Positions 12,018 to 55,929 of a stretch of 64,000 bases of DNA are shown here, piece after piece. Location: assembly GCA_001782235.1 (NCBI GenBank), contig MFOC01000007.1:315909-379908 (forward strand). Reading direction: 5' to 3'. The position numbers and the translations under genes were made by a program. The stretch is from Candidatus Levybacteria bacterium RIFCSPHIGHO2_02_FULL_40_18. Its GTDB lineage: Bacteria; Patescibacteriota; Microgenomatia; Levybacterales; GWA1-39-11. The notes under the pieces were generated by a model. It ran no database searches, had not been told where the DNA came from, and was given only the letters and a program-made list of their open reading frames with translations. Numbering within the stretch: position 1 is the stretch's first letter; each line of letters starts with the position of its first letter.

Positions 12018-12139
12018 ACAGAAAAAGGAAAGTGGTTATTTGAGATTAGAGAATAGTAATAGAAATTGGAAATTGGAGAATAGCTATTTTTCTATTCCCT
12101 ATTATCTATTTTCCATTACTAATTTTCATTTTCCAATAA

Positions 12140-13129
12140 CTATTTTCTAGATATAGCTTTTTTAACTGCTGCAATTACGGCGTCTTTGTCCATTTTGTAT
12201 TTTTTAATTAATTCGGCAGGTTTTCCCGATTCTCCAAAAGTATTTTGAAGACCAACGAATTCCATCGGGACAGATTTGTTTCGAACAAGAACTTCTGCAA
12301 TTGCACCTCCCAAGCCTCCTGTGATTTGATGGTCTTCTACTGAAACTGCGGTTCCTGCCTTTTGGGTGAGTTCGAGTATTGATTTTTCATCAATTGGTTT
12401 TATTGTTGAAACATTAGCAACAATCACTTCGATTCCTTGGATTGCGAGTTCTTTTGCGGCGAGGAGCGCCTGGTACAAGAGCCAGCCCATGCTAAAGATT
12501 ACTACCTGAGGTTTATTCGAAGTCCAAAAGACTTGAATTCTCCCGGGCTCAAAAGGAGTTTTTTCGGTGGTCATCACAGGGCTTTTGTCTCGAGTAAATC
12601 TTAGATAAACAGGCCCCTTTATTTTTCCTGCTTCAACAGTTGCTTTTTTGGCTTCAATTGCGTCACAGGGTACGAAAATCTTGATATTTGGCCATGCTCG
12701 GACTGACGCAATATCTTCTGTTGCTTGGTGAGTTGCACCATCAGGGCCTGTCATAATCCCCGAATGATGCCCTGCGATTTTAACATTTGAATCGTTATAT
12801 ATAATAGTTGTACGAATTGTTTCCCAATTCTTTCCGGGAGAAAAAGTTGCGTAAGATGAAATAAAGGCGGTTTTTCCTGAAATTCCAAGGCCGGCAGCGA
12901 TAGCGGCCATGTTTTGTTCGGCAACTCCCACTTCAAAAAAGCGGTCTGGGAATTTTTTAGCAAAGTCTTCAGATTTGGTCGACTCTGTTAAATCAGCACA
13001 AAGAACTACAACATTTGGATCTTGTTCGCCCAATTCTACAAGACCCGCGCCGTAGCCGGATCTCGTTGCATCCATCTCAACATCCTTATCAAAAAGTTTA
13101 GGGTTCAGTTTTAAATCAGGATTTAACAT
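12140..13129 (-). CDS. transketolase, C-terminal (pyrimidine-binding) subunit
   Basis: Transketolase Pyr and C-terminal domain motifs (FFEVGVAEQNMAAIAAGL..., GPDGATHQATEDIA). Pairs with the adjacent N-terminal subunit. Confidence 0.85.
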   Translation of the reverse strand: MLNPDLKLNPKLFDKDVEMDATRSGYGAGLVELGEQDPNVVVLCADLTESTKSEDFAKKFPDRFFEVGVAEQNMAAIAAGLGISGKTAFISSYATFSPGKNWETIRTTIIYNDSNVKIAGHHSGIMTGPDGATHQATEDIASVRAWPNIKIFVPCDAIEAKKATVEAGKIKGPVYLRFTRDKSPVMTTEKTPFEPGRIQVFWTSNKPQVVIFSMGWLLYQALLAAKELAIQGIEVIVANVSTIKPIDEKSILELTQKAGTAVSVEDHQITGGLGGAIAEVLVRNKSVPMEFVGLQNTFGESGKPAELIKKYKMDKDAVIAAVKKAISRK

Positions 13130-13133
13130 AATA

Positions 13134-13236
13134 AGAACTCAAAACTTAAAACTCAAAACTCAAATCTACAACTTTAAATCTTAAAACTTTTTAGATTTGA
13201 GATGTAGTTTTGACATTTGACATTTGAGATTTGACA
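13134..13236. repeat. family-B imperfect palindromic heptamer repeat (aaactca/aaactta ... agatttga/catttga) filling the gap between the two transketolase cistrons
   Basis: The left arm (aactcaaaacttaaaactcaaaactcaaatctacaactt) and right arm (agatttgagatgtagttttgacatttgacatttgagatttgac) are roughly reverse complements. Related fragments occur inside tsaE (54603-54650) and the SpoU gene (24781-24817). Confidence 0.75.
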
Positions 13237-13240
13237 TGAA

Positions 13241-14105: not shown

Positions 14106-15440
14106 CTATTTTCTTAGTACTATTATTAAATCAGATACATTGGAAGGAAGTCTACCCGTAGTAAGATTATCCCGAGTTTTCTTGAAGAACTCAAAACTAT
14201 TGTTGGTTTCCAAATATTTTAGGGGTTCAATCTCTAATTTTTTTGCTCTCTCGATAGTTTTATAGTCGCCAATTGCGCCTGCATGTTCGGTATTGTCCCA
14301 TCCGTCTGAAGCGAACGAACAAATTGTAATATCGCGGCCGACATGCTCAAGTGCTCCTAAAACTAGTTCTTGGTTTCGCCCGCCGCGACCCTCCCTCTGG
14401 GCCAGAGACTCTCTGGGCCGGAGACTCTTTTTTGCTACGTGAACGGTTGTTTCTCCCCCGCAAAGCAAGATCGAATTAAGATGAGTCTCAGAAATCAATT
14501 TTTTGCCTGCATCTCGTGCCTCTGATTCAAATCGATCGGAGAAAATCTCTGCATGGTAGCCTAGGTCTTTGGCCCCTTTTTGCATTGCAGAAAGTGCCGT
14601 ATCGTTACTTAAAACGATTATATTACGAACATTCTCAAAATATTTTTTATCATGAGGATTTTCAATAAAAGCGTCACGCGTCAAATTTAATTCTTGTTCG
14701 AGGTTATATTTTTTAATGATCCCAATTGCATCTTCAATTGTTGTTGGATCGTAGGCTGTTGGGCCTGAGGCAATGGTTGATAGATCATTTCCGGGAACAT
14801 CTGAATAAATCAAAGCTGCCACTTTTGCGGGGTACAAAATTTGAGCTAATCCTCCGCCTTTAACGTCCGATAAGTGCTTTCTGACTATATTCATTTCGGT
14901 AATATTTGCTCCGGATTTCAAAAGCGCTTTGCCGACCTCTATTTTTTGTTCGAGTGATATTGTATGCGGATGAACAAACATGGCAGACCCGCCGCCGCAA
15001 ATAACAACCAAAACAAGATCTTTTTCGGAAAGATTCGAAAGCCTTTCGAGAACCTTTTGGGTGAATTTAAAATTCGTTTCGGACGGAAGAGGATGAGTTC
15101 CCTTAGTAAATTCAAGTTTTTCAAGGCGAGGCCTTGCATGAGCTTGCCTTTCAGGGATGCTAGTATCGATCACGTAACCCTCCGTTAATTTGTCGGAAAT
15201 TAGATTTTCGAGTATCTTAGCATTCTCGGCCGAACCTTTTCCAAAGCCCAAGATAAAGACTCGTTCGAAATCATCCAGATCGAATTCCTGATCGCCGATC
15301 GTCAAAATATTCCCGTGTCTGTGAACGCTTGTTCTGAAAACCTCCTCCGGCTGAATCGAAGCAAGTGCAGCCTCAACAAGCTCTAAAATAATTTTTCTTT
15401 CAGGCGTCTTTGCAATCTCGGAGAAATTCTTAATAAACAT
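14106..15440 (-). CDS. glycerate 2-kinase (MOFRL family)
   Basis: MOFRL-family motifs (VFILGFGKGSAENAK; LVLVVICGGGSAMF; LLCGGETTVHV). Confidence 0.75.
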   Translation of the reverse strand: MFIKNFSEIAKTPERKIILELVEAALASIQPEEVFRTSVHRHGNILTIGDQEFDLDDFERVFILGFGKGSAENAKILENLISDKLTEGYVIDTSIPERQAHARPRLEKLEFTKGTHPLPSETNFKFTQKVLERLSNLSEKDLVLVVICGGGSAMFVHPHTISLEQKIEVGKALLKSGANITEMNIVRKHLSDVKGGGLAQILYPAKVAALIYSDVPGNDLSTIASGPTAYDPTTIEDAIGIIKKYNLEQELNLTRDAFIENPHDKKYFENVRNIIVLSNDTALSAMQKGAKDLGYHAEIFSDRFESEARDAGKKLISETHLNSILLCGGETTVHVAKKSLRPRESLAQREGRGGRNQELVLGALEHVGRDITICSFASDGWDNTEHAGAIGDYKTIERAKKLEIEPLKYLETNNSFEFFKKTRDNLTTGRLPSNVSDLIIVLRK

Positions 15441-22560: not shown

Positions 22561-22596
22561 GATATTGAACTGAGATCCTTCGCTTGCGCTCAGGAT

Positions 22597-24555: not shown

Positions 24556-25086
24556 TTATTTATTTCTCTCGAGGGATTTGTAAAGGACTATTGCCAGACT
24601 GACTATTACATTGAGGCTGACATTTACGCCAAACAGGGGGAGTTCGACAATTTGATCTGAGATTTCAAGAGTCTCTTTTGAGACGCCGCGGGTCTCATTT
24701 CCAACTACTAGCGCGATAGGGAATTCGTAATCTGCCTCCGTATATGGAATACTTTTCGAAGATTGCTCAATCGCAATCACTTTTAGATTTAAGATGTAAG
24801 ATTTAAGATGTAAGATGGCGGATTTGGTGTCAACGACATGCTCCCAGTCGACCCATTCGGTTGTGTTAATCGAAGCCTTCTTGATTCGGGAATTTGGCGG
24901 GGTTTCAGTGTATCCGCAAAGCAAAAGTTTTTTTGCAGCAACTGCATCAGCCAATCGAAAAATTGCACCGACATTATATGTATCCAAGACGTTATCAAGA
25001 ACTATATAAATATCGTTTTTTTTGATTTTACCTTTTTCTTTTTCAGAGGATGAGCTCCGCCTCAATTTATATGCGTTTAACTTCAT
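24556..25086 (-). CDS. SpoU/TrmH-family RNA 2'-O-methyltransferase
   Basis: SPOUT motifs (IYIVLDNVLDTYNVGAIFRLADA ... ALVVGNETRGVS ... LNVIVSLAIVLY). Confidence 0.75.
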   Translation of the reverse strand: MKLNAYKLRRSSSSEKEKGKIKKNDIYIVLDNVLDTYNVGAIFRLADAVAAKKLLLCGYTETPPNSRIKKASINTTEWVDWEHVVDTKSAILHLKSYILNLKVIAIEQSSKSIPYTEADYEFPIALVVGNETRGVSKETLEISDQIVELPLFGVNVSLNVIVSLAIVLYKSLERNK

Positions 25087-27152
25087 TGTTCACTTGGGGC
25101 AGGGGTAGATGGCACAGCTTGTTTCACAAGTTGGGCTTTAGTCCACACCGCAAAATCACACTTTGGATAGTTGCCGCATCCGTAAAATGTTCGGCCGCGG
25201 CGCGTCCTTTTCAGTACCATCTTACCTTGGTCGCGAGGGCATAAGTAACCCGATTCCTCAGCAAAAGATTCACGGAATTTGCAGTTCGGAAAATTAGAGC
25301 ATGCCTTAAACTTACCGAATCTACCGATTCTAATAACAACGTCACCGCCGTCGAGCGGACATTTTTCGCCTGTTTTTTCAAGCTCAATCTTAATTTTTTT
25401 CTCCTCTTGCGCATCTTTTAAGTGCTTCTCGAATGGTCCGTAAAATTCTTTTATAACCGGAACCCAGTCCGTTTTACCGTCTGCTACCTCATCAAGTTTG
25501 TCTTCCATAGACGCTGTAAAAGGAATATCATCTATTGTTGAGAAGTTTTTAACCAAAAAATCATTCACCAGAGTCCCTATCTCAGTTGGCTTAAAGCGAT
25601 TTTCTTCTTTTTCAACATAAAATCTTGCTTCTATTGTTGAAATAATCGGCGCATAAGTTGAGGGACGTCCGATTCCGTGTTCCTCAAGCGCACTAATCAA
25701 AGATGCTTCACTATATCTTGGAGGCGGATTGGTATTGTGAGAGGTGATATTAATTTTGCGAAGATCCAATTTTTCATCTTTTTGAAGTTCCGGTATCAAC
25801 TGCTCTTCATCCTCGTAAAACCAGATTTTAAGAAATCCATCGAATTTTATCACGCGACCATTTGCTACAAAATCATAAGCTTTGCTATCTTTCACCTGGG
25901 CCTCGACTCGGGTAGAAAGGAATACTGCATCTGCCATTTGAGTTGATAGAGCTCTTTTATATATAAGACTGTAAAGCTTTGCAAAATCTCTTCCGAGTTT
26001 TGCAGTGACCGTCTCTTCATCTTCGAATAAATTAGTGGGGCGTATTGCTTCGTGTGCTTCTTGAGCAAGCTTTGATTTCGTATGGTAAATTCGGGGTGTT
26101 TGAGGTAGGTATTTTCCCCCAAAATTTTTCTCAATATAATTTCTTGCAGCGGATATAAATTCATTCGAAAGATTGTAGGAATCGGTTCTGTGATAGCTTA
26201 TAAAGCCTTCTTCATATAATCTCTGTGCTAAGCCCATGGTTCGTTTACTTGTGTAACCGAAACGGCGAGAAGCCTCAATCTGAAGAAGCGATGTGGTAAA
26301 GGGAGGATAAGGCGCACGTTTTGTTTCTTTTTGAATTACGTCTGTAACAACAAAATCTTTATTTGCAAGATCGTTCTGGATTGATTCGGCATCCGTGTTC
26401 GACAATCGGGTTTCGGCATATTTGTATTCCCCATCATAAAGAGGTAGGGTAGTTGTTTTTTCAATCGGCTCATCGTTTATCTTAACCAACTCAAAAGTTA
26501 TCGGCTGGTTTTCTCCCCTCCAGGCCGGAGGCCCTCCAGGGCCGGAGGCCTGTTTATTAACGACGACAAAAACTCTATAAAATTCTGTGCTTTTGAATTT
26601 TTCAATTTCGCGCTCACGCTCAACAATTAATCGAAGCGCTATAGACTGAACGCGACCGGCTGACAATCCCTTTTTGATTTTCATCCAAAGAATTGGCGAA
26701 AGCTTGTATCCTACAACTCGATCTAAAACACGTCTTCCGGTTTGCGCGGCAACAAGATTCATGTCTATCTCCTTTGGATGTTCCAAGGCTTCGTTAATTG
26801 CGGTAGGCGTGATTTCATGGAAGACAATTCGATCGAACTTAGTTTTCTTATTTTCCTCCGATAAAACCGTTTTGAGATGATATGAGATTGCTTCTCCTTC
26901 GCGGTCCGGATCTGTTGCCAAAATTATTCGATCGACATCTTTTACTTCCTCAATTAAACCCTCAACAATTTTCCTCTTATCTTTTGGGATTACATACGAG
27001 GGTGTGAAGTCATGATCAATATCCACCCCCAAAGCCCCCTTTGGCAAATCTCGAATATGCCCCATCGATGCCTCTATTTTGTACTTTTCTCCAAGAAACC
27101 TCGATAATGTTTTCGCCTTAGTGGGAGACTCGACAAGTATTAAAGATTTCAT
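25083..27152 (-). CDS. topA: DNA topoisomerase I
   Basis: Toprim N-terminus (LILVESPTKAKTLSRFLG...GHIRDLP), the Topo IA core, and C-terminal Zn-ribbon repeats (CPLDGG..., CPRDQGKM..., CGNYPKC). Confidence 0.9.
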   Translation of the reverse strand: MKSLILVESPTKAKTLSRFLGEKYKIEASMGHIRDLPKGALGVDIDHDFTPSYVIPKDKRKIVEGLIEEVKDVDRIILATDPDREGEAISYHLKTVLSEENKKTKFDRIVFHEITPTAINEALEHPKEIDMNLVAAQTGRRVLDRVVGYKLSPILWMKIKKGLSAGRVQSIALRLIVEREREIEKFKSTEFYRVFVVVNKQASGPGGPPAWRGENQPITFELVKINDEPIEKTTTLPLYDGEYKYAETRLSNTDAESIQNDLANKDFVVTDVIQKETKRAPYPPFTTSLLQIEASRRFGYTSKRTMGLAQRLYEEGFISYHRTDSYNLSNEFISAARNYIEKNFGGKYLPQTPRIYHTKSKLAQEAHEAIRPTNLFEDEETVTAKLGRDFAKLYSLIYKRALSTQMADAVFLSTRVEAQVKDSKAYDFVANGRVIKFDGFLKIWFYEDEEQLIPELQKDEKLDLRKINITSHNTNPPPRYSEASLISALEEHGIGRPSTYAPIISTIEARFYVEKEENRFKPTEIGTLVNDFLVKNFSTIDDIPFTASMEDKLDEVADGKTDWVPVIKEFYGPFEKHLKDAQEEKKIKIELEKTGEKCPLDGGDVVIRIGRFGKFKACSNFPNCKFRESFAEESGYLCPRDQGKMVLKRTRRGRTFYGCGNYPKCDFAVWTKAQLVKQAVPSTPAPSEQ

Positions 27153-27282: not shown

Positions 27283-28377
27283 TCAGTCGAAGTAGAGGTC
27301 GGGAAGGGCGGTGATTTTGTGCCAGTCGACTGGTTTGTAATTTAGGAGGGCATAGGCGCCGATCATGGCGGCATTGTCTGTAGCGTAAGTTTTTGCAGGA
27401 GCGGAAATCTTAGCCGTTGGCAGTTGGCTTTTGGCTGTTAGCTCGAACTGTTGGCGGAGGGTTTGGTTTGCGGATACGCCGCCACCAAGAAGAATATTGT
27501 TAATTTTGTACAATTTTGCTGCTCGAATAGTTTTTTTGATCAACACAGCAAAAATTGCCTCTTGTAAAGCATGGCAAACCTCATTAATTAACCTTTCGGT
27601 TAAATGTTTTTTAACAATAAATCTTGATATTTCAGTCTTTAGTCCTGAAAACGAAAAATCAAAATCCTCGGTATTAATTAATGGACTATGAAATTTGGCT
27701 GTTGGTTGTTGGTTGTTAGCTCGGCGCTCGATTTCGGGACCGGCCGGATAAGATAGGCCAAGAATTCGGCCGACTTTGTCGAGTGCTTCTCCTGCCGCGT
27801 CGTCTCGAGTCCCGCCAAGCCATTTGAATTTAGATGCTGATTCGAACAACAACAAATCAGTATGGCCTCCGGAGACAATAAGGCCGATGAAGGGGAACAT
27901 TTTTCCAGTATTCAGTATTGAGTATTCAGTATTGAGTATAAAATTAGCAAAGAGGTGTGCGAGGAGATGATGAACGGGAATTATTGGCTTGTCGAATGCA
28001 AAAGATAGGGTTTTTGCTGTTTCGACTCCAACGAGAAGTGAACCTATTAAACCGGGGCCACTGGTGACGGCAATGGCGTCGATAGACTTTTTAAGTATTT
28101 CATTTGCTCGTTCGAACTGTTTCGAATTGTTCAATTGTTTGATTGCTTCATTGTTGATCCCTTCGGAATTAAGAAGTGCGCGGACAATAACCGGAATTAT
28201 TGCTTTGATTTGTTCGCGGGCTGCGAATTCCGGAATTATTCCGCCAGTTTTGGCATGGAGACTTGAAGAGGTGGCGGTAACATTTGATAAAACCCTTACG
28301 AATTGTTCGTTGTCTTTTTTTTCAACTACAGCCGCCCCCGTTTCATCACAGCTAGTCTCAAGACTTAGTATTATCAT
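27283..28377 (-). CDS. tsaD: tRNA N6-adenosine threonylcarbamoyltransferase
   Basis: MIILSLETSCDETGAAVV, HHLLAH, SGGHT and DFSFSGLKT, all Kae1/TsaD hallmarks. The start is taken at MIILSL; the track ORF extends further upstream. Confidence 0.88.
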   Translation of the reverse strand: MIILSLETSCDETGAAVVEKKDNEQFVRVLSNVTATSSSLHAKTGGIIPEFAAREQIKAIIPVIVRALLNSEGINNEAIKQLNNSKQFERANEILKKSIDAIAVTSGPGLIGSLLVGVETAKTLSFAFDKPIIPVHHLLAHLFANFILNTEYSILNTGKMFPFIGLIVSGGHTDLLLFESASKFKWLGGTRDDAAGEALDKVGRILGLSYPAGPEIERRANNQQPTAKFHSPLINTEDFDFSFSGLKTEISRFIVKKHLTERLINEVCHALQEAIFAVLIKKTIRAAKLYKINNILLGGGVSANQTLRQQFELTAKSQLPTAKISAPAKTYATDNAAMIGAYALLNYKPVDWHKITALPDLYFD

Positions 28378-28610
28378 AAATTGTTTCGCCTGCCCCGTAT
28401 AAGCGTCCTCGCGACGCGAGGACGAAGACCTCGGGAGTAAGTAAGCTTTGTGCGGGGTCACAAGAGGTCTCAATAGCCAAAACTCTCATTGAAATAAAGA
28501 AATTGGTTGTAAGAAATTGGAAAATGGTTATGGAAACTAGATATTGGAAATTGGTTTGTTTTAAAAAACTATTTTCTATTTTCCTATAACTATTTTCTAT
28601 CTTCTCTTTG

Positions 28611-29081
28611 CTATATTCCCTTGAAAGTAATCTTGATGCCTTTTTTAATTCCCAATTTCTTAACCTGTCCGGCGTTTAATTCCAAAACTCGATTTACGGG
28701 TACGTCAGGAATGTAAATAGTTAAATTTGGAGTCTGGGCGCCTGGCGAGGCATTTTCGACGATATAAACGACCATATCGTCATCAATAAATATAATATCT
28801 ATGGGAAACTTCATGTCTCTCATCCAAAAGCCGTATGTCCCCTTTTTTTCAAAAATAAATAACATTCCCTGGTCTTCCGGTAAATTATTCCTTCCCGAGA
28901 GCCCCTTCGTTCTATCTTTGTCAGATTTTGCAAGAATCAGGCTTATCTTTTTGTTATTGACTTGCGCCTCGGCGCCCCCTTTAAACGGAATTAAAGATGG
29001 CAGATTTCCTCCGGCTTTAAAAACTGCAAGGAGAATAACTGCAATTATAAGTGCCACATAAACTATAATTAATTTCTTCAT
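28611..29081 (-). CDS. DUF192 domain protein
   Basis: Signal/TM N-terminus plus the DUF192 core (GMLFIF...GFWMRDMKFPIDIIFID). Confidence 0.65.
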   Translation of the reverse strand: MKKLIIVYVALIIAVILLAVFKAGGNLPSLIPFKGGAEAQVNNKKISLILAKSDKDRTKGLSGRNNLPEDQGMLFIFEKKGTYGFWMRDMKFPIDIIFIDDDMVVYIVENASPGAQTPNLTIYIPDVPVNRVLELNAGQVKKLGIKKGIKITFKGI

Positions 29082-29584: not shown

Positions 29585-29735
29585 ATAGTTAATAAGAAAT
29601 TGGTTGTTGGAAATAAGAAAATGGTAATAGAAATTAGATATTAGAAATTGGTTTTTATTTATTTTTATTTAACTATTGTCTATTTTCTACTTTCCATTAC
29701 TAATTTCCATTTTCCTATAACTATTTTCTAATATA
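29585..29735. repeat. family-A palindromic heptamer-periodic intergenic repeat (~150 bp), copy A3; near-identical inverted copy at 46495-46650, shorter variants at 12030-12150 and 28487-28612
   Basis: The reverse complement of 46502-46648 aligns almost base for base with 29592-29733. Shared blocks are tagaaattgg, aaaatggtaatagaaa, ccattactaatttccattttcc and ataactattttcta. Confidence 0.85.
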
Positions 29736-29739
29736 TTAA

Positions 29740-31161
29740 TTATTCTTTGGTTCCTCGCAAGAAAATCGCCTGCCATGGTCTGTATGAAGAAACGAAAACA
29801 TCGTTAATGACTACTTGTCCGTCTTTTGTGACGGTTCTTGAGAATACGGATTTTCCTCCCGGTGCCGCAAAATCCACTTGTTTCTCAACCCCTTTTGGCA
29901 AATTGGGATCGTCTTGATAAAGAGGGGGCGGAGCAGGTACAACATTTGTTACAACCGGTTGCGTTACCACGACTTTTCTTCCATCAGACTTCCCATAGAT
30001 AGTAAATGTGAGACTCATATTAATAGGGTCAATTAATCCCTGAATTAGTACGTGATTTCCGGTGTCATTTTTAAATTTGAAGTCAACGCTTGGAGCATAC
30101 ACCGTTGCGTCAAATCCGGGCAGAGAGTCTTGTTCGTAGTATCCTACCCGGTACGCATGTGCACGTCTTTCCGTAATTGGCAGGCCCGAGTTTAAAATTG
30201 CCCGAAATAAAGTTGTGGAAACCTGGCAAACTCCGCCTCCGTCTCCAAGCACGGTTCTCCCGTTCTGGATAACATATGCCTCCTTATACCCCGTGAATTT
30301 TGAGACATCGCCAAGAGCTTTATTAAATGAGAATTCTTCACCCGGAGCAATAAGTACTCCATTGATTCGTGATGTTGCTAAGTTTATGTTATAAAATCTA
30401 TTTGCAATTGACCCCACAAAAATAGATTTACCGGCACCAATATCCTCAACTATCCCTAAATTATTTGCCTCCTCTGTTGTCACATCAGGTTTTAAGATTT
30501 TAATTGGGACTTCAATCGCTATGGTTTTTATGTCTCTTTCTCTTATAATTTCTTTGATCCTTTTTCTTAGCTCTTTCTTCACAGCATCAATGTCAATAGT
30601 TTTTCCTTCACTTGATTCCTGGAATGCTACGACCCTGTTATTCTCCACTTTAAATTGAGCATCTTGGGGATCCACGTGAATTACTTTTCGGATTGGTTCA
30701 AGTTCCGCGGTAAGTTTTTCCTCATCAAGTGTATAAGTTGAGGAGAGAAAAGTGCCATTAATATAGGAAGAAAGCGTTATGTAGGTATCGCTGAAAAGAT
30801 TTTTTGTTTTTCCAAGGCTAAGCGCCTGTTCTGTTATTAGGTTGATGTCATATCCGATGTCAAGTTTTTTGGCCGAGACTGTCGCGACATATGAATCTTG
30901 AGAAAAAATAAAAGTGTTCTCCCCAATTTTCTGATTCTTCGCAAGAAAGATTTTCTCAATGTCGGCGCGGGATTTTTCTCCGATATAAACATTATCGATA
31001 AAGATGCCCGGAATGACCCTGTTTTTAAAGGTATGTTGAAAATAAAAAAGAATAAGAGAAGAAAGCACCATGCTCGCCAAAATAAATCCTATCAAAAACC
31101 AATAAGACGATTTTGCGACATGGTAAATCGTTTGTTTTTTACGGGGTGAAAGTCTTAGCAT
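29740..31161 (-). CDS. VanW-family protein
   Basis: N-terminal TM helix and the VanW core motif (GGGVCQVSTTLFRAILNSGLPITERRAHAY). Confidence 0.75.
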   Translation of the reverse strand: MLRLSPRKKQTIYHVAKSSYWFLIGFILASMVLSSLILFYFQHTFKNRVIPGIFIDNVYIGEKSRADIEKIFLAKNQKIGENTFIFSQDSYVATVSAKKLDIGYDINLITEQALSLGKTKNLFSDTYITLSSYINGTFLSSTYTLDEEKLTAELEPIRKVIHVDPQDAQFKVENNRVVAFQESSEGKTIDIDAVKKELRKRIKEIIRERDIKTIAIEVPIKILKPDVTTEEANNLGIVEDIGAGKSIFVGSIANRFYNINLATSRINGVLIAPGEEFSFNKALGDVSKFTGYKEAYVIQNGRTVLGDGGGVCQVSTTLFRAILNSGLPITERRAHAYRVGYYEQDSLPGFDATVYAPSVDFKFKNDTGNHVLIQGLIDPINMSLTFTIYGKSDGRKVVVTQPVVTNVVPAPPPLYQDDPNLPKGVEKQVDFAAPGGKSVFSRTVTKDGQVVINDVFVSSYRPWQAIFLRGTKE

Positions 31162-46464: not shown

Positions 46465-46684
46465 ATTCAAATTCCTAAATTCTAAAAAATATATCAATAT
46501 ATTATTAGAAAATAGTTACAGGAAAATGGAAATTAGTAATAGAAAGTAGAAAATAGAAAGTAGTTAAATAAAAATAAATAAAAACCAATTTCTAATATCT
46601 AATTTCTATTACCATTTTCTTATTTCCAACAACCAATTTCTTATTGACAGAATTTTGATATTCGAATTTAGGATTTAAAATAGT

Positions 46685-52278: not shown

Positions 52279-53544
52279 ATGGCTAAATGGTTACATGGTT
52301 ACATAGTTAGATCATCTTTCGCAATTCTCGTTCTGTTTCTTTCTTTATTCTTAGGCAGGATTGTTTTTGCACAAACGGTAACGCCATCCCCAACGCTTTC
52401 ACCTACGCCAACTCCGGAATCGAATTCTTCGTCAAATGTCTGTACTGGCGTTCAGGAATGTGCCGATCAAAAATTAGATTGCTCAAAGTGTATAGAATAT
52501 TTAACAAACAAGAAGAATGAGGCTTCGGGCAAAGCAAAAACTCTCTCGTCGGAAATCGCCGTAACAAATAACCAAATTAAATTAACTGAGGCAAGAATAA
52601 GAGCAACCGAACAGAAAATAAAAGAGCTTCAGAAAGACATAGGCATTGCAAAAGGAAAGATAGAGGAGCTTGAAAGCACGATAGATAGGGCAACAAGACT
52701 CTTGATTGAAAGAATTGCCGCCGTATATCAGGTGGGAAGAATTGAGCCTTGGCAAATATTCTTGACCGCAAGGAATATTGATGATGTTTTTTCAAGACTT
52801 AAGTATCTTCGTTTAGTTCAAATTTATGATAAGAGACAAGTTTATGCAGCGGAACAGGCAAAAACTGACTATGCAAACCAAAAAGAAATTTTTGAGGACA
52901 AAGAAGGCGAGGCAAAAAGCCTAAGTGCAAAACTCGAAGGTTATAATCAACAACTTGAAACAGAAAAAGCCGGAAAGCAAGAATTGCTGAATATAACCCG
53001 GAATGATGAGGCAAGATATCAAAGATTCTTAGCCCAAGCAAGAGCTGAGCGAGCAATAATCCAGGGTGGGGGGACGGAGGTATTTTTGCGGAATGTTAAT
53101 GTAGGCGATTCGGTCGGAACAATAATTTCAGGTAGATCCGGTTGTTCCACGGGTACACATGTTCACTTCAGTGTTTATCAAGGAACTTCTCCGCGCGATC
53201 CAAGCGATTTCCTCTCATCAAAGGGGGTTTCCTACTCGTATCCCGAGTCGCAGTATGGATATTATGGCACTGTAAATCCGCATGGAAGTTATCCATGGCC
53301 TCTTGACGACCCAATTCAAGTTAATCAGGGATATGGTTCGCATGGGTTTGCTCAGCAGTTTTATCCAAGTGGGTTTCATGACGGGATTGATATGGAGGGC
53401 GGAAGTCTTAATGTTAAGGCAGTCCGCGCTGGCAAGCTTTATGAAGGAAGTTACGGCGGCTGTAGTTATGGTCCCCTGACTTACGCAAAAGTTGAGCACG
53501 ATGATGGATTGATAACTTGGTATCTTCACATAACTCCCCACTAG
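52279..53544 (+). CDS. M23-family peptidoglycan metalloendopeptidase with N-terminal coiled coil (EnvC-like)
   Basis: Signal/TM segment, ~200 aa of coiled coil, then an M23 (LytM) domain (GCSTGTHVHFSVYQG ... HDGIDMEGG ... YLHIT). Sits directly after ftsEX. Confidence 0.8.
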   Translation: MAKWLHGYIVRSSFAILVLFLSLFLGRIVFAQTVTPSPTLSPTPTPESNSSSNVCTGVQECADQKLDCSKCIEYLTNKKNEASGKAKTLSSEIAVTNNQIKLTEARIRATEQKIKELQKDIGIAKGKIEELESTIDRATRLLIERIAAVYQVGRIEPWQIFLTARNIDDVFSRLKYLRLVQIYDKRQVYAAEQAKTDYANQKEIFEDKEGEAKSLSAKLEGYNQQLETEKAGKQELLNITRNDEARYQRFLAQARAERAIIQGGGTEVFLRNVNVGDSVGTIISGRSGCSTGTHVHFSVYQGTSPRDPSDFLSSKGVSYSYPESQYGYYGTVNPHGSYPWPLDDPIQVNQGYGSHGFAQQFYPSGFHDGIDMEGGSLNVKAVRAGKLYEGSYGGCSYGPLTYAKVEHDDGLITWYLHITPH

Positions 53545-53592
53545 AAATAGTATCTAGATATTAGATACTAGATATTAGATAATAGGTGCGAA

Positions 53593-54411
53593 ATGATGAG
53601 ACGATTCTTGTTGGTTTTATTCTTGATTTCGGTGACCTTTTTTATTTTACCCAGCGAAATATATGCTTCTATTACAATTAACGAATTCAGTTCTAGTACG
53701 TCTAGCGATGACTGGGTAGAAATATATTTTGAGAGCGAAGACACTGCATTATATCAGCTAGTAGATGCTTCGGATAATACAAAAAACTTATCAGATGGAA
53801 GTTGTTCTGGTAATTTTTGTACAGTTGATTGGTCGAACAGATTAAATAATAATGGCGACACAATAAAACTTCGGCTGATATCCTCTAGTTCAGTCGTGGA
53901 TGAAATAACTTACGGGAATGATTCACTATCGGCTCCATCTGATGGGCAAACGGTCGGTCGACTTCCGGATGGAACAGGTTCGTTTGTGATGTTGTCTTCT
54001 TCATCGAAAGGGAGTTCGAATAATTCTTCGAATGCTGTAGTCTCGCCGACGGCGACGCCAACTAATACACCCACGCCTACGGATTCGCCGGATCCAACAA
54101 ACACGCCTACACCTACAAAAACTCCCACCCCAAAAAAGACGCCAACCCCGACTAAAAGACCAACCCCAACCCCTACAAAACTACAAGAGAAAGAGGCGGG
54201 GACGGATGATTTATTTGTTGCTGGCGAGACCAAAATTGCGCTTGATAAGTCTCCTACGCCTTCTGGAGTCACTGAGATTTTGGGAGAAAGCACATCAAAA
54301 CAGCCCCTTATTTTTATCGGCCTTGGGGCAATAGTTCTTGCAGTGTGCGGAATTCTTGCATATTTCCAGTTTGGAAACAAAATCCTTGTATGGAAGAAAC
54401 AGAATTTATAA
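53593..54411 (+). CDS. secreted lamin-tail-domain (LTD) protein with Pro/Thr-rich linker and C-terminal membrane anchor
   Basis: Signal peptide; LTD motif (SITINEFSSSTSSDDWVEIYFESED ... NNGDTIKLR); a (TPTP)n linker; a C-terminal hydrophobic helix. Confidence 0.7.
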   Translation: MMRRFLLVLFLISVTFFILPSEIYASITINEFSSSTSSDDWVEIYFESEDTALYQLVDASDNTKNLSDGSCSGNFCTVDWSNRLNNNGDTIKLRLISSSSVVDEITYGNDSLSAPSDGQTVGRLPDGTGSFVMLSSSSKGSSNNSSNAVVSPTATPTNTPTPTDSPDPTNTPTPTKTPTPKKTPTPTKRPTPTPTKLQEKEAGTDDLFVAGETKIALDKSPTPSGVTEILGESTSKQPLIFIGLGAIVLAVCGILAYFQFGNKILVWKKQNL

Positions 54412-54878
54412 CTCGCTCGGCGAGAGAAACAGAAGATTTAGGTTCAAAACTTGCTCATAACTTTCGAATCGGTAATATTATTGTGTTGACGGGCGAACTA
54501 GGGGCAGGAAAAACTACCTTTGTTCAGGGGGTAGGCAAAGCATTTAATATTAAAAGCCGAATCATTTCGCCTACATTTATTTTGGTTAGAAGACACAAAG
54601 TGAAACTCAAAACTCAAAACTCAAAACTCAAAACTACAACTCCCCTCGATGAAACTCGGGGCAAGCAAAACTTAAAAACTCTCTATCATATTGATTTATA
54701 TCGGCTGGAGGATTCGGAGGAAATTAAAAATTTGGGGCTCGAGGAGATTTTTGAAGATCCGAACGCCATTTTTTTCGTCGAGTGGGGAGAAAAACACGAG
54801 GAGTTGAAAGCCTCTTGGGAAATAAACTTCGAGATCCTTGAGAAAGACAAGAGACGTATAACGCTCAAACATGAATAA
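54390..54878 (+). CDS. tsaE: tRNA threonylcarbamoyladenosine biosynthesis ATPase TsaE
   Basis: P-loop LTGELGAGKTTFVQG and the conserved SPTF..V..H...LYHIDLYRL. Carries a ~20-aa insertion encoded by a heptamer tandem repeat. Confidence 0.85.
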   Translation: MEETEFITRSARETEDLGSKLAHNFRIGNIIVLTGELGAGKTTFVQGVGKAFNIKSRIISPTFILVRRHKVKLKTQNSKLKTTTPLDETRGKQNLKTLYHIDLYRLEDSEEIKNLGLEEIFEDPNAIFFVEWGEKHEELKASWEINFEILEKDKRRITLKHE

Positions 54879-55449
54879 AAATTTATTAAAAGCGCTCGAA
54901 ACTGTTAAGAAAGGAGGAATCATTATTTTTCCAACGGATACGGCATTCGGGATTGGATGTCGAGTTGATGATGAAAAAACCGTTGAACGATTATTTCAAA
55001 TTCGAAAACGACCAAAAGAAAAGGCTGTTCCTGTTCTTGCAAGTTCAATCAATATGGTTGAAGACTATGTCGAATATATCAAACCTGATGTTCGAAAGCT
55101 TATGGGGAAATATTGGCCGGGCGCTTTAACTTTGGTCTTGCCAGCGAAAGTAGAAAGAGTGTCGAATTTGATTCGCGGTGGTGGGAAAACAATAGGGATT
55201 CGGATTCCGGATCATGATTCAATTCTTAGGGTTATTAGGGCGGTTGGGGTGCCGATTTTGGGGCCATCCGCGAACCTTGCGGGAGAGAAAACGCCTTTTA
55301 AAATGTCTGATTTAGATCCGAATTTGGTACGATTGGTTGATTTTGTTTTGCACGGCCGTTGTAAAATTAAGAAGCCCTCCACAGTTCTTGACGTTTCGAA
55401 AAAGCCATGGAAGGTGATTCGGCAGGGAGCCGTCCGTCTAACAAAGTAA
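54871..55449 (+). CDS. tsaC: L-threonylcarbamoyladenylate synthase (YrdC/Sua5 family)
   Basis: YrdC motifs (GGIIIFPTDTAFGIGC ... AVPVLASS ... WPGALTLVLPA ... IGIRIPDH). Confidence 0.85.
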   Translation: MNKNLLKALETVKKGGIIIFPTDTAFGIGCRVDDEKTVERLFQIRKRPKEKAVPVLASSINMVEDYVEYIKPDVRKLMGKYWPGALTLVLPAKVERVSNLIRGGGKTIGIRIPDHDSILRVIRAVGVPILGPSANLAGEKTPFKMSDLDPNLVRLVDFVLHGRCKIKKPSTVLDVSKKPWKVIRQGAVRLTK

Positions 55450-55475
55450 CAAATTGACCAATTAACAAATTAACC

Positions 55476-55787
55476 GTGAATAAATTATATATTGATACAA
55501 GAGATAATAACCGGATTGTCGTTCGGTTAAATAAAAATGGAGAGGTATTCCAAGAAATATCGGTAGCAAGCAAAAATAAAGCTCAGATAACACTTCCTTT
55601 GATCGAGGAAGTTTTAAACAAGGCGAAACTTACGATTAGCGATATTGACAAAATTGATGTGGAAACAGGGCCGGGGTCTTTTACCGGGCTGCGGGTAGGA
55701 ATCTCGATTGCCAACGCACTGTCCTTCACAGGATTAGTCCGAATCAACGGCAAAAAACTCGGCGAGGTTGAAATACCCCAATACTAA
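55476..55787 (+). CDS. tsaB: TsaB-like protein, short form (N-terminal YeaZ domain only)
   Basis: LYIDTRDNNRIVVRL ... VETGPGSFTGLRVGISIANALSF matches the TsaB/YeaZ N-terminal half. Only 103 aa, against ~230 aa in E. coli. Confidence 0.7.
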   Translation: MNKLYIDTRDNNRIVVRLNKNGEVFQEISVASKNKAQITLPLIEEVLNKAKLTISDIDKIDVETGPGSFTGLRVGISIANALSFTGLVRINGKKLGEVEIPQY

Positions 55788-55929
55788 AAGTTTGGGTTTT
55801 GGTTTGTGTTTGGGCTGCTAGTATAGTCATGGTTTGGGTCTTGGGTTAAATTACCAAAAACCAAACCCTCTTACCATACGAGCTGCTCCACCCATACCCT
55901 TAAACTATAACTTTTGATATGATAAAACT

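Follow-up and report, generated by a model that had tools for sequence, protein, structure and literature searches.

Here we report on a heptamer repeat inserted in frame into tsaE, a housekeeping gene for N6-threonylcarbamoyladenosine (t6A) modification of tRNA, in a 64,000-nucleotide stretch of contig MFOC01000007.1 from Candidatus Levybacteria bacterium RIFCSPHIGHO2_02_FULL_40_18 (hereafter the window; positions count from its first letter). The tsaE insert is probably a translated solo copy of a short, discrete module that is dispersed through genomes of the Candidate Phyla Radiation (CPR, or Patescibacteria), carried as a passenger in an intact enzyme, with copies at the site turning over. 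This reading builds on features that the loci display directly: the anatomy of the insert, its membership of a sequence family, its potential for in-frame translation, its location in a loop, its absence from or different form in relatives, and its low divergence. The module family is apparently undescribed; a search of the full-text literature found no account of heptamer repeats or palindromic in-frame elements in CPR, although such a search does not prove their absence.

The coding sequence of tsaE occupies positions 54390..54878 of the forward strand in the list of open reading frames (ORFs) and encodes 162 amino acids. Its product scores 112.3 bits with Pfam PF02367 (cut-off 26.6, E = 1.9e-32) and aligns to positions 2-127 of the 128 in the profile; it keeps Walker A (GELGAGKTT), Switch I (SPTF), Switch II (YHIDLYR) and Walker B (VEW) intact, and is 100% identical to P0001, a protein of Candidatus Levybacteria RIFCSPHIGHO2_02_FULL that is carried on 31 contigs. 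The profile score, the motifs of Walker A, Switch I and Switch II and the P-loop fold all place it in the TsaE family. The essentiality of tsaE is carried over from other bacteria, not from CPR. Between Switch I and Switch II lies a perfect heptamer array, (AAACTCA)x4.7, at 54603..54635 of the forward strand (Tandem Repeats Finder: period 7, 100% matches, score 66), which on direct reading runs as gtg, four copies of aaactca, aaactac and aactcc. The frame is open across the array and translates as SPTFILVRRHKVKLKTQNSKLKTTTPLDETRGKQNLKTLYHIDLYRL. A first-pass annotation, made from the letters and ORFs of the window, had described an in-frame heptamer repeat between conserved blocks of tsaE; the repeat finder, the ORF and the Pfam match all bear this out, and the translation given there agrees with ours. 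Its end coordinate of 54650 needs correction, as it cuts through a composite feature that extends to about 54680. The array is beyond chance. Allowing up to two mismatches, the 14-mer AAACTCAAAACTCA occurs nine times in the window against 1.45 expected, a number reached in none of 100 shuffles, and a period scan of the window detected eight period-7 arrays compared with none in 40 third-order Markov simulations. The tsaE array has the top score in that scan, and period 7 is the dominant tandem period across the whole window.

The insert as a whole measures 78 nt and consists of two nested parts, a module of about 53 nt and a 24-nt mini-palindrome that splits it. The module has sharp ends and is made up of four heptamers, a core AAAACTACAACTC and a tail AAAACTTAAAAACT. 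Its 5' part (54603..54642, forward strand) contains the four heptamers and the core AAAACTACAACTC and encodes KLKTQNSKLKTTT; it was delimited by alignment with the arms of an intergenic palindrome at 13135-13237 and with the tsaE inserts of relatives, and it fits the pattern of the 115 loci described below. The GC-rich mini-palindrome CCCTCGATGAAACTCGGGGCAAGC follows (54643..54666, forward strand; encoding PLDETRGK), a piece missing from tsaE of the related loci L004-L007 and from canonical modules. The 3' tail AAAACTTAAAAACT (54667..54680, forward strand) encodes QNLKT, leads into the LYHIDLYRL strand and corresponds to the family consensus downstream of the core, AAAACTNAAAACT (112 copies). 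The peptides predicted across the insert junctions include HKVK/LKTQNSK and QNLKTLYHIDLYR. The 24-nt piece is placed exactly between core and tail, where canonical modules pass directly from CTACAWCTY to AAAACT, and folding of the tsaE segment yields this nested hairpin as the only stem, with nothing unusual in its stability (z = -0.19).

Judged by its sequence, the mini-palindrome belongs to a second dispersed repeat family, CCYTCG-N4-9-CTCRGG(G/A), often followed by CAAGC, which gave 23 matches in the 958 kb examined. Three further copies lie in the window at 22577, 57096 and 60936 (-), and several family members are found inside other heptamer arrays. Members also occur in L010 (position 2761), L037, L078, L082, L101, L119 and L126, and translations of the family include PLDETRGK, SLRQGSGRA and FPREDSGQA.

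The same module is present outside genes in the window. Between two half-genes of transketolase (Transketolase_N on one side, Transket_pyr/Transketolase_C on the other) is a palindrome whose left arm (13135..13188, forward strand) is a module copy with AACTCAA units and core AAATCTACAACTT, and whose right arm (13189..13237, reverse strand) is, as its reverse complement, a module of the AAATCTC/AAATGTC type with core AAAACTACATCTC. Both arms match the tsaE inserts in a column-by-column alignment of about 55 nt, non-repeat core included: the left arm is most like the tsaE copy of the window, and the reverse complement of the right arm is closest to the insert of L004-L007, including the core AAAACTACAWCTY of the L004 copy. 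The likeness to the left arm that the first-pass annotation had noticed thus extends over the arm's full length. The palindrome folds on either strand (z = -4.3 and -4.85) into a hairpin of 5-bp helices separated by 2-nt mismatches, with a period of 7. No complementary arm lies close to tsaE.

Beyond the window, we scanned one genome per species (GTDB representatives) with the pattern AAAWSTCAAAWSTCAAAWCTACRWCTY and recovered 115 further module loci, mostly from genomes labelled as Patescibacteria or CPR, among them Roizman-, Davies-, Gottesman-, Levy-, Falkow-, Kuenen-, Magasanik- and Buchananbacteria, Saccharibacteria and Parcubacteria. Upstream of the search pattern a further two heptamers are conserved, as is AAAACTNAAAACT downstream of it, after which conservation falls to background, with information content at background level 14 nt upstream and 13 nt downstream of the pattern. 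The resulting consensus, four STCAAAW heptamers, a CTACAWCTY core and a AAAACTNAAAACT tail, spans about 53 nt with a period of 7. Unit number is exactly four in 74 of the 115 copies and five in 10; counted by the same rule, the tsaE array of the window comprises four canonical CTCAAAA units. An inverted partner lies within 140 nt for about 39 of the 115 loci, and the intergenic module is usually an inverted pair able to fold into a long imperfect hairpin. With respect to neighbouring genes, intergenic copies occur in tandem, divergent and convergent contexts, half of them being undetermined.

Several other origins or roles for the family found no support. The orientation of intergenic copies follows no clear pattern, which does not support a pure terminator role. 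Rfam at gathering thresholds returned only a tRNA, and its permissive E-value mode, applied to the palindrome, returned far-sub-threshold noise from miRNA hairpins. Matches were absent from IMG/VR viral contigs and from GenBank phages (0 in each), and plasmids yielded a weak match to a cyanobacterial heptamer.

Since the array forms part of a defined element of about 53 nt with a canonical count of four units, it does not appear to be an expanded microsatellite. This bears on the possibility that the repeat arose locally and acts as a contingency locus, in which slippage would switch tsaE off and on. The first-pass annotation had pointed out that gain or loss of one or two units would cause a frameshift; the arithmetic holds, as the shift would fall upstream of Switch II and Walker B, but the length variants that such switching would entail have not been seen. 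The unit length is indeed not divisible by three, and there is no imperfection in any of the four units. Other heptamers form perfect arrays of 4.7-5.7 units at this site in other lineages (see below), so that slippage or homogenisation does take place over evolutionary time. Against this, the core and tail that accompany the array are common to the 115 other copies, and in L001-L003 and L129 the units themselves have diverged with no change in array length. The identical protein is found in 31 contigs and four metagenome-assembled genomes (MAGs) at NCBI, and no loop length variants occur within clusters of at least 90% identity. A scan of JGI metagenomes for the flanks separated by N{7,37}, corresponding to one to five units, gave no matches in a collection from which the allele of the window is itself absent, and a second metagenome scan, anchored on the nested hairpin, recovered one contig, identical to L001, and no variant allele; these searches use consensus assemblies, in which rare frameshifted cells are invisible, and frameshifted alleles would fall outside protein clusters. 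With four units being the family norm and no copy-number variant found, a phase switch is unlikely, and a housekeeping t6A gene is an unlikely kind of host for contingency repeats; we regard this explanation as very improbable.

About a quarter of the module copies (24-29) lie inside long ORFs, all in the sense orientation. The A/C-rich strand is always the sense strand and all three frames are used (7/9/13), giving peptides such as KTQNSKLQLK, QKSKVKTTTQNSK or SKLKTQNYNSKLK. The uniform orientation is explained by the antisense strand, where each of the three frames contains a stop in 114 of 114 copies. A complementary notion, that the module is free of stops in all three sense frames, proved only partly true, as the 3' tail often reads TAA in one of them. 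The hosts are housekeeping genes of unrelated function, including IleRS/ValRS, GltX, PolA, PolX, TopA, DnaX, PGK, YchF, HMG-CoA reductase, 6-phosphogluconate dehydrogenase, DHFR, CarA, a PduO-type adenosyltransferase (at the same site in two genomes) and another TsaE at the same site (L018). As a separate observation, CPR proteins with a CTACA-core module often also hold heptamer-derived peptides of other families (L021, L034, L067, L074, L106); examples are an IleRS (KIKNQESRIKNQED), TopA (PRWKNQEPNAKNQKRTKNQEPKY) and a large surface protein (ISNIKKISNIKYQISNIF).

To place the insert in the protein, an AlphaFold2 model of the window's TsaE was built on a 40-sequence alignment. The model has the TsaE fold with a mean predicted local distance difference test (pLDDT) score of 84; its best Foldseek matches are the TsaE structures 5np9, 1htw, 6s84 and 6n9a, and it superposes on 6n9a_E and 6s84 at 2.1-2.2 A. 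In this model the insert, at about residues 71-96, joins strands 66-70 and 97-102, and residues 76-92 have pLDDT below 50. Since Switch I precedes the first of these strands and Switch II follows the second, the insert would form the far turn of their beta-hairpin. The surface loop that the first-pass annotation had expected is therefore what the model presents, a low-confidence loop on an otherwise normal TsaE fold. Published contacts between TsaE and TsaBD involve helix alpha3, the beta5-beta6 connection and the loops of the nucleotide site, with the hairpin tip not among them, and the modelled loop probably points away from the TsaBD interface.

These results have implications for the idea that TsaE gained the loop as an adaptation, with protein-level selection favouring a flexible arm of positive charge that might, for instance, contact RNA or a partner protein. 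The loop is rich in Lys, and the TsaE proteins of distant CPR lineages have similar loops, SK(L/V/I)KTTTQN(S/L)K. However, the same peptide is found in dozens of unrelated enzymes and in three frames, the loops of relatives are short or quite different, and the model assigns the arm no ordered structure; TsaE competes with tRNA for TsaBD rather than binding tRNA. Selection on the protein would also leave unexplained the conserved synonymous sites described below. We consider such an adaptation improbable.

Across homologues, the loop between SPTF and YHID is highly variable. It comprises 35 amino acids in the window; among 120 homologues, it has 17 in 47 (typically RKHRGKFDKQKINL), 13-15 in 16 and 20-51 in 39. 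In T. maritima TsaE, with Switch I at S61PTF64 and Switch II at H78LDLYR83, 12 residues separate F and Y. The insertion is thus a net gain of 18 amino acids relative to the closest short-loop relatives and of about 23 relative to T. maritima, in line with the approximately 20 residues first proposed. The site is occupied in different ways by different relatives. L012 and L013 have a 17-residue loop and no repeat, L001-L003 share the arrangement of the window with two units changed to AAAGTCA, and L004-L007 carry (AAATCTC)x4 (one unit being AAATGTC) followed by AAAACTACATCTC and AAAACCTAAAAACT, without the 24-nt piece. At the same hairpin tip are (AGAATCA)x4.7 in L010 and L011, AGAATCA units split by a different mini-palindrome, CCCTTCG...CTCAGGG, in L008 and L009, (ATATCAA)x5.7 in L130, a parcubacterial locus in whose genome the CTACA-core module is found elsewhere, AGATCWA units in L131, together with a nested GC hairpin, and variant CTACA-core modules in L018 and L132. 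The finding that could have overturned the repeat interpretation, relatives free of the repeat family with a loop of the same length and sequence, did not emerge, as the loops of relatives that lack the repeat are shorter and different. On this sequence comparison, the loop appears to be a hot spot for heptamer insertions that behaves like an intergenic spacer. In the orthologous spacers (53545-53592, 55440-55480 and 55788-55929 in the window, compared in L001, L006, L008, L010 and L012), short-period arrays or palindromes of 7-8 nt are found throughout, with units that differ between relatives, such as TAGATAT, AGATGTA and AGATATT. The presence of different heptamer families in orthologous spacers points to fast turnover or concerted change of whole arrays.

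The wide occupancy of the site might alternatively reflect a single ancient insertion in an ancestral CPR tsaE, passed on vertically without continuing exchange and since decayed or lost in most lineages. Many lineages do have the site occupied, and the common 17-residue loop (GKFDKQKIN, with A-rich codons) could be a decayed remnant. This scenario is difficult to reconcile with four or five heptamer families at the same site, with a grouping of loops that conflicts with flank similarity, and with a module that is far less diverged than its flanks and remains 85% identical to the copy in L018 despite saturated flanks, and we judge it to be unlikely to a high degree. A neighbour-joining tree of TsaE, considered as a means of counting gains and losses, was too poorly resolved for that purpose.

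The low divergence of the module was unexpected. Between the window and L001, nucleotide differences amount to 21% in the tsaE flanks and 6% in the module, and third-position differences to 43% and 7% (Fisher p 2e-4 for third positions); between L004 and L007 the corresponding values are 21% and 5%, and 37% and 0% (Fisher p 4e-4). The module hence diverges about fourfold less than its flanks between species, and the boundaries of the low-divergence tract coincide with those of the module. When synonymous rates were estimated separately for each amino acid on 1,272 conserved codons from seven genes nearby, 11.6 synonymous codon differences were expected in the module and one was seen (P < 5e-6). 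Compared with the distant L018, the module is 85% identical, and third positions of the flanks are saturated (30% identity). Within clusters of at least 90% identity the loop is invariant while other positions vary. By loop type the window pairs with L001, and L004 with L007; by flank similarity the pairs are instead L001 and L007 (0.86), and the window and L004 (0.82).

Because a neutral, vertically inherited loop should diverge more rather than less, we take the low divergence to suggest that the copies are young or have been homogenised against the family, through replacement or gene conversion. The fast turnover at the tsaE site and in the spacers fits such a reading. Trees of the genes neighbouring tsaE are incongruent, and the M23 peptidase at 52279-53544 in the window is 95% identical as protein between L001 and L008, loci in which all other neighbouring genes are about 48-75% identical; together these suggest frequent recombination among Levybacteria lineages. 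The peptidase result prompted us to consider a cassette swap in a near-identical background, which we rejected, as the tsaE flanks are only about 75-85% identical and the loci are mosaics.

The main rival for the low divergence is selection at the nucleotide level, in which the module is kept in tsaE as a cis-acting element, either an array of sites for an RNA- or DNA-binding protein or a pairing target for the G/U-rich arms of intergenic copies. On that account the small CCCCUCG...CUCGGGG hairpin would be part of the signal and the peptide a by-product. Synonymous sites that are almost frozen in two independent species pairs, next to flanks with 37-43% third-position change, speak for it, as do a module nearly invariant over more than 100 copies in many lineages and a loop invariant within clusters of at least 90% identity. 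The existence of close relatives with no module, or with unrelated heptamers, argues that tsaE requires no specific sequence at this site; there is no complementary arm near the gene, the segment's fold is unremarkable, Rfam gave no match, and no binding factor is known. We therefore rate a cis-acting role as unlikely, while giving it more weight than any of the alternatives discussed above.

Returning to a passenger module whose copies turn over, the data can be read as follows. A 24-nt mini-palindrome of the second family would have inserted into the module in the lineage of the window. A single arm could survive in a gene only with its A/C-rich strand as sense, since the other strand has stops in every frame, and only at a site tolerating a floppy loop rich in Lys, Thr, Gln, Asn and Ser. 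Such a site would be offered by the beta-hairpin between Switch I and Switch II, at its tip and clear of the TsaBD contacts in the literature, and the enzyme would stay intact with the insert as a passenger. Copies at this site would turn over, either by replacement or because re-insertion or gene conversion homogenises them against the family, which would keep them near the family consensus and would place different heptamer families at the same site in different lineages.

Several observations weigh against this reading. The 24-nt piece is 24/24 identical between the window and L001, its copy-specific loop included, and the scarcity of synonymous change could reflect nucleotide-level selection rather than youth or conversion. 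Neither a target-site duplication nor a clean empty site could be defined at the tsaE insert, and short-loop relatives have about nine codons where the module would sit. [quoted passage not shown] The shortness of the TsaE tree prevents a choice between single and multiple gains, and translation of the loop is predicted from the intact frame. About 45 of the module loci come from MAGs with other or generic labels, which are unverified; the TsaE of one such MAG, labelled 'Gammaproteobacteria', is most similar to homologues found with the Levybacteria query.

Among known systems, the closest functional parallel is with the Rickettsia palindromic elements (RPEs), dispersed repeats read in frame within a wide range of unrelated metabolic genes, at places that the fold can accommodate (PMC10969869). 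Both families are dispersed and short, are found in frame inside unrelated housekeeping genes and add a peptide where the fold permits, and for both the manner of spread is unknown. In-frame copies in unrelated genes are observed here, and a fold-compatible surface position is predicted for TsaE by the structural model. RPEs differ in being about 100-150 bp long, palindromic in each copy, restricted to Rickettsia and not built on heptamers; the module described here is about 53 nt, is represented in genes by a single non-palindromic arm, is probably unrelated in sequence and has hosts throughout the CPR. A self-folding 100-150-bp palindrome is likewise lacking, as the tsaE copy has a z-score of -0.19 and only the intergenic doublets fold. 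The first-pass annotation had drawn this analogy for tsaE alone; it is apt and reaches further, given that the module is in frame in at least 24-29 other CPR housekeeping genes. By these likenesses the module can be regarded as a functional analogue of RPEs and not a member of them.

Repetitive extragenic palindromes (REPs) form hairpins as doublets (REPINs) and are mobilised by REP-associated tyrosine transposases (RAYTs) (PMC3116915, PMC3733652). The module family resembles them in its inverted intergenic doublets, which would fold into long imperfect hairpins, in a conserved CTAC/GTAG tetranucleotide and in having genome-specific families. A REP, however, is a self-complementary palindrome of 20-40 nt with GTAG at its head and is extragenic by definition, whereas the arm of the module is A/C-rich and not self-complementary, its GTAG is internal, and about a quarter of its copies are intragenic. 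Inverted doublets capable of hairpin formation are therefore shared, and a self-complementary unit and an exclusively extragenic location are not.

Cyanobacterial short tandemly repeated repetitive (STRR) sequences are reportedly heptanucleotide arrays of many types, with small dispersed repeats (SDRs) of 21-27 nt nested inside them and with the frame kept in genes. The likeness to the CPR elements is one of architecture: dispersed heptamers of several types, with the 24-nt piece in tsaE as the counterpart of the nested mini-elements. To our knowledge, a discrete four-unit module with a conserved core and tail, inverted pairs and identity across lineages has not been described for STRRs. The two systems also belong to different phyla and differ in sequence, homology being limited to a 43-nt, 84% match to (ATTTGAG)x3 in Fremyella/Tolypothrix plasmids (E = 7e-3). 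Simple sequence repeat contingency loci, as in Haemophilus or Neisseria, share with tsaE an intragenic tandem repeat whose unit is not divisible by three; they differ in that no copy-number polymorphism is seen here (among consensus assemblies), the whole family has a fixed unit number, a housekeeping gene is the host and the repeat forms part of a dispersed module. Intragenic MITEs (Correia/NEMIS, ERIC and BOX elements) and the tandem repeats of Borgs are, similarly, small non-coding repeats read through in host ORFs. MITEs have terminal inverted repeats and target-site duplications, neither of which is defined for the module: its intergenic copies are inverted pairs, and the tsaE copy is single-armed with no clean empty site from which a duplication could be defined. 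Intragenic Borg repeats reportedly have unit lengths divisible by three. Borg tandem repeats create disordered protein regions and arise locally (PMC9879509), and they do not constitute a dispersed conserved module.

The remainder of the window holds further heptamer elements. In tsaD (27283-28473, reverse strand; Pfam TsaD 5e-75; a 396-residue ORF from a TTG start) there are at least three in-frame heptamer arrays, at 27906-27939, 27695-27717 and 27416-27443, with units ATACTCA/ATACTGA x5 (encoding ILNTEYSILNTG), AACAACC x3 (ANNQQPTA) and a CCAAAAG/CCAACTG type (LTAKSQLPTAK); in L001, the intergenic palindrome between tsaC and tsaB has an arm that is identical to this first array over the array's initial 20 nt, the first array being the one at 27906-27939. 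A gene for a SpoU-family RNA methyltransferase (24556-25086, reverse strand) contains an in-frame AGATTTA/AGATGTA array at 24781-24817. Another intergenic palindrome family has four copies in the window (12040-12150, 28490-28620, 29590-29740 and 46520-46640), with arms of period about 7 (gaaattg/gaaaatg ... ctatttt/cattttc) and a related element 3' of the TsaB-like gene of L010. Perfect GC-rich hairpins of period 16-17 stand at gene ends at 14395-14428 and 26516-26550 (CTCTGGGCCAGAGACT, CCCTCCAGGGCCGGAGG); they resemble intrinsic terminators and are unlike the AT-rich heptamer palindromes.

The genes around tsaE have features of their own. Downstream are tsaC/Sua5-YrdC (54871-55449) and a 103-residue TsaB-like gene (55476-55787), whose match to the Pfam profile for TsaD/TsaB is confined to the N-terminal part of that profile (24-78 of 264). 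Its short length is kept in the orthologues of L001, L005, L008 and L010 and is 106 residues in L130, which suggests that CPR use a mini-TsaB. On the 5' side, an ORF of 272 residues (53593-54411, forward strand) overlaps tsaE by 22 nt and is the most divergent gene of the locus (35-70% identity). It has a Pro/Thr-rich 36-nt tandem repeat at 54094-54169, a C-terminal hydrophobic segment and no Pfam match, and its counterpart in L130 matches LTD (PF00932).

The genomes of CPR bacteria are tiny and streamlined, yet in the window and its relatives heptamer palindromes occupy many spacers and single arms are read through in core enzymes, including TsaE, TsaD, aminoacyl-tRNA synthetases, polymerases and a topoisomerase. 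More speculatively, and as a possibility that we consider rather unlikely, the heptamer modules may be more than passive junk and be made or acted upon by a dedicated, sequence-specific process, with coding copies under a dual constraint of protein and nucleotide sequence and with the surface loops of core enzymes continually remodelled across the radiation. Candidates for such a process may include templated reiterative synthesis or homing that rewrites copies to a master sequence, or a conserved nucleic-acid-binding factor for which the arrays serve as sites. If the module is as widespread as the 115 loci suggest, it would represent a general origin of loop insertions in CPR proteins that has gone unreported so far, and a confounder for their alignments, phylogenies and structure predictions. 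It would further offer a tractable system for exploring how very short repeats spread and stay uniform, a question also raised by RPEs, REPs and STRRs, for which the frozen synonymous sites in tsaE provide a concrete and testable handle.

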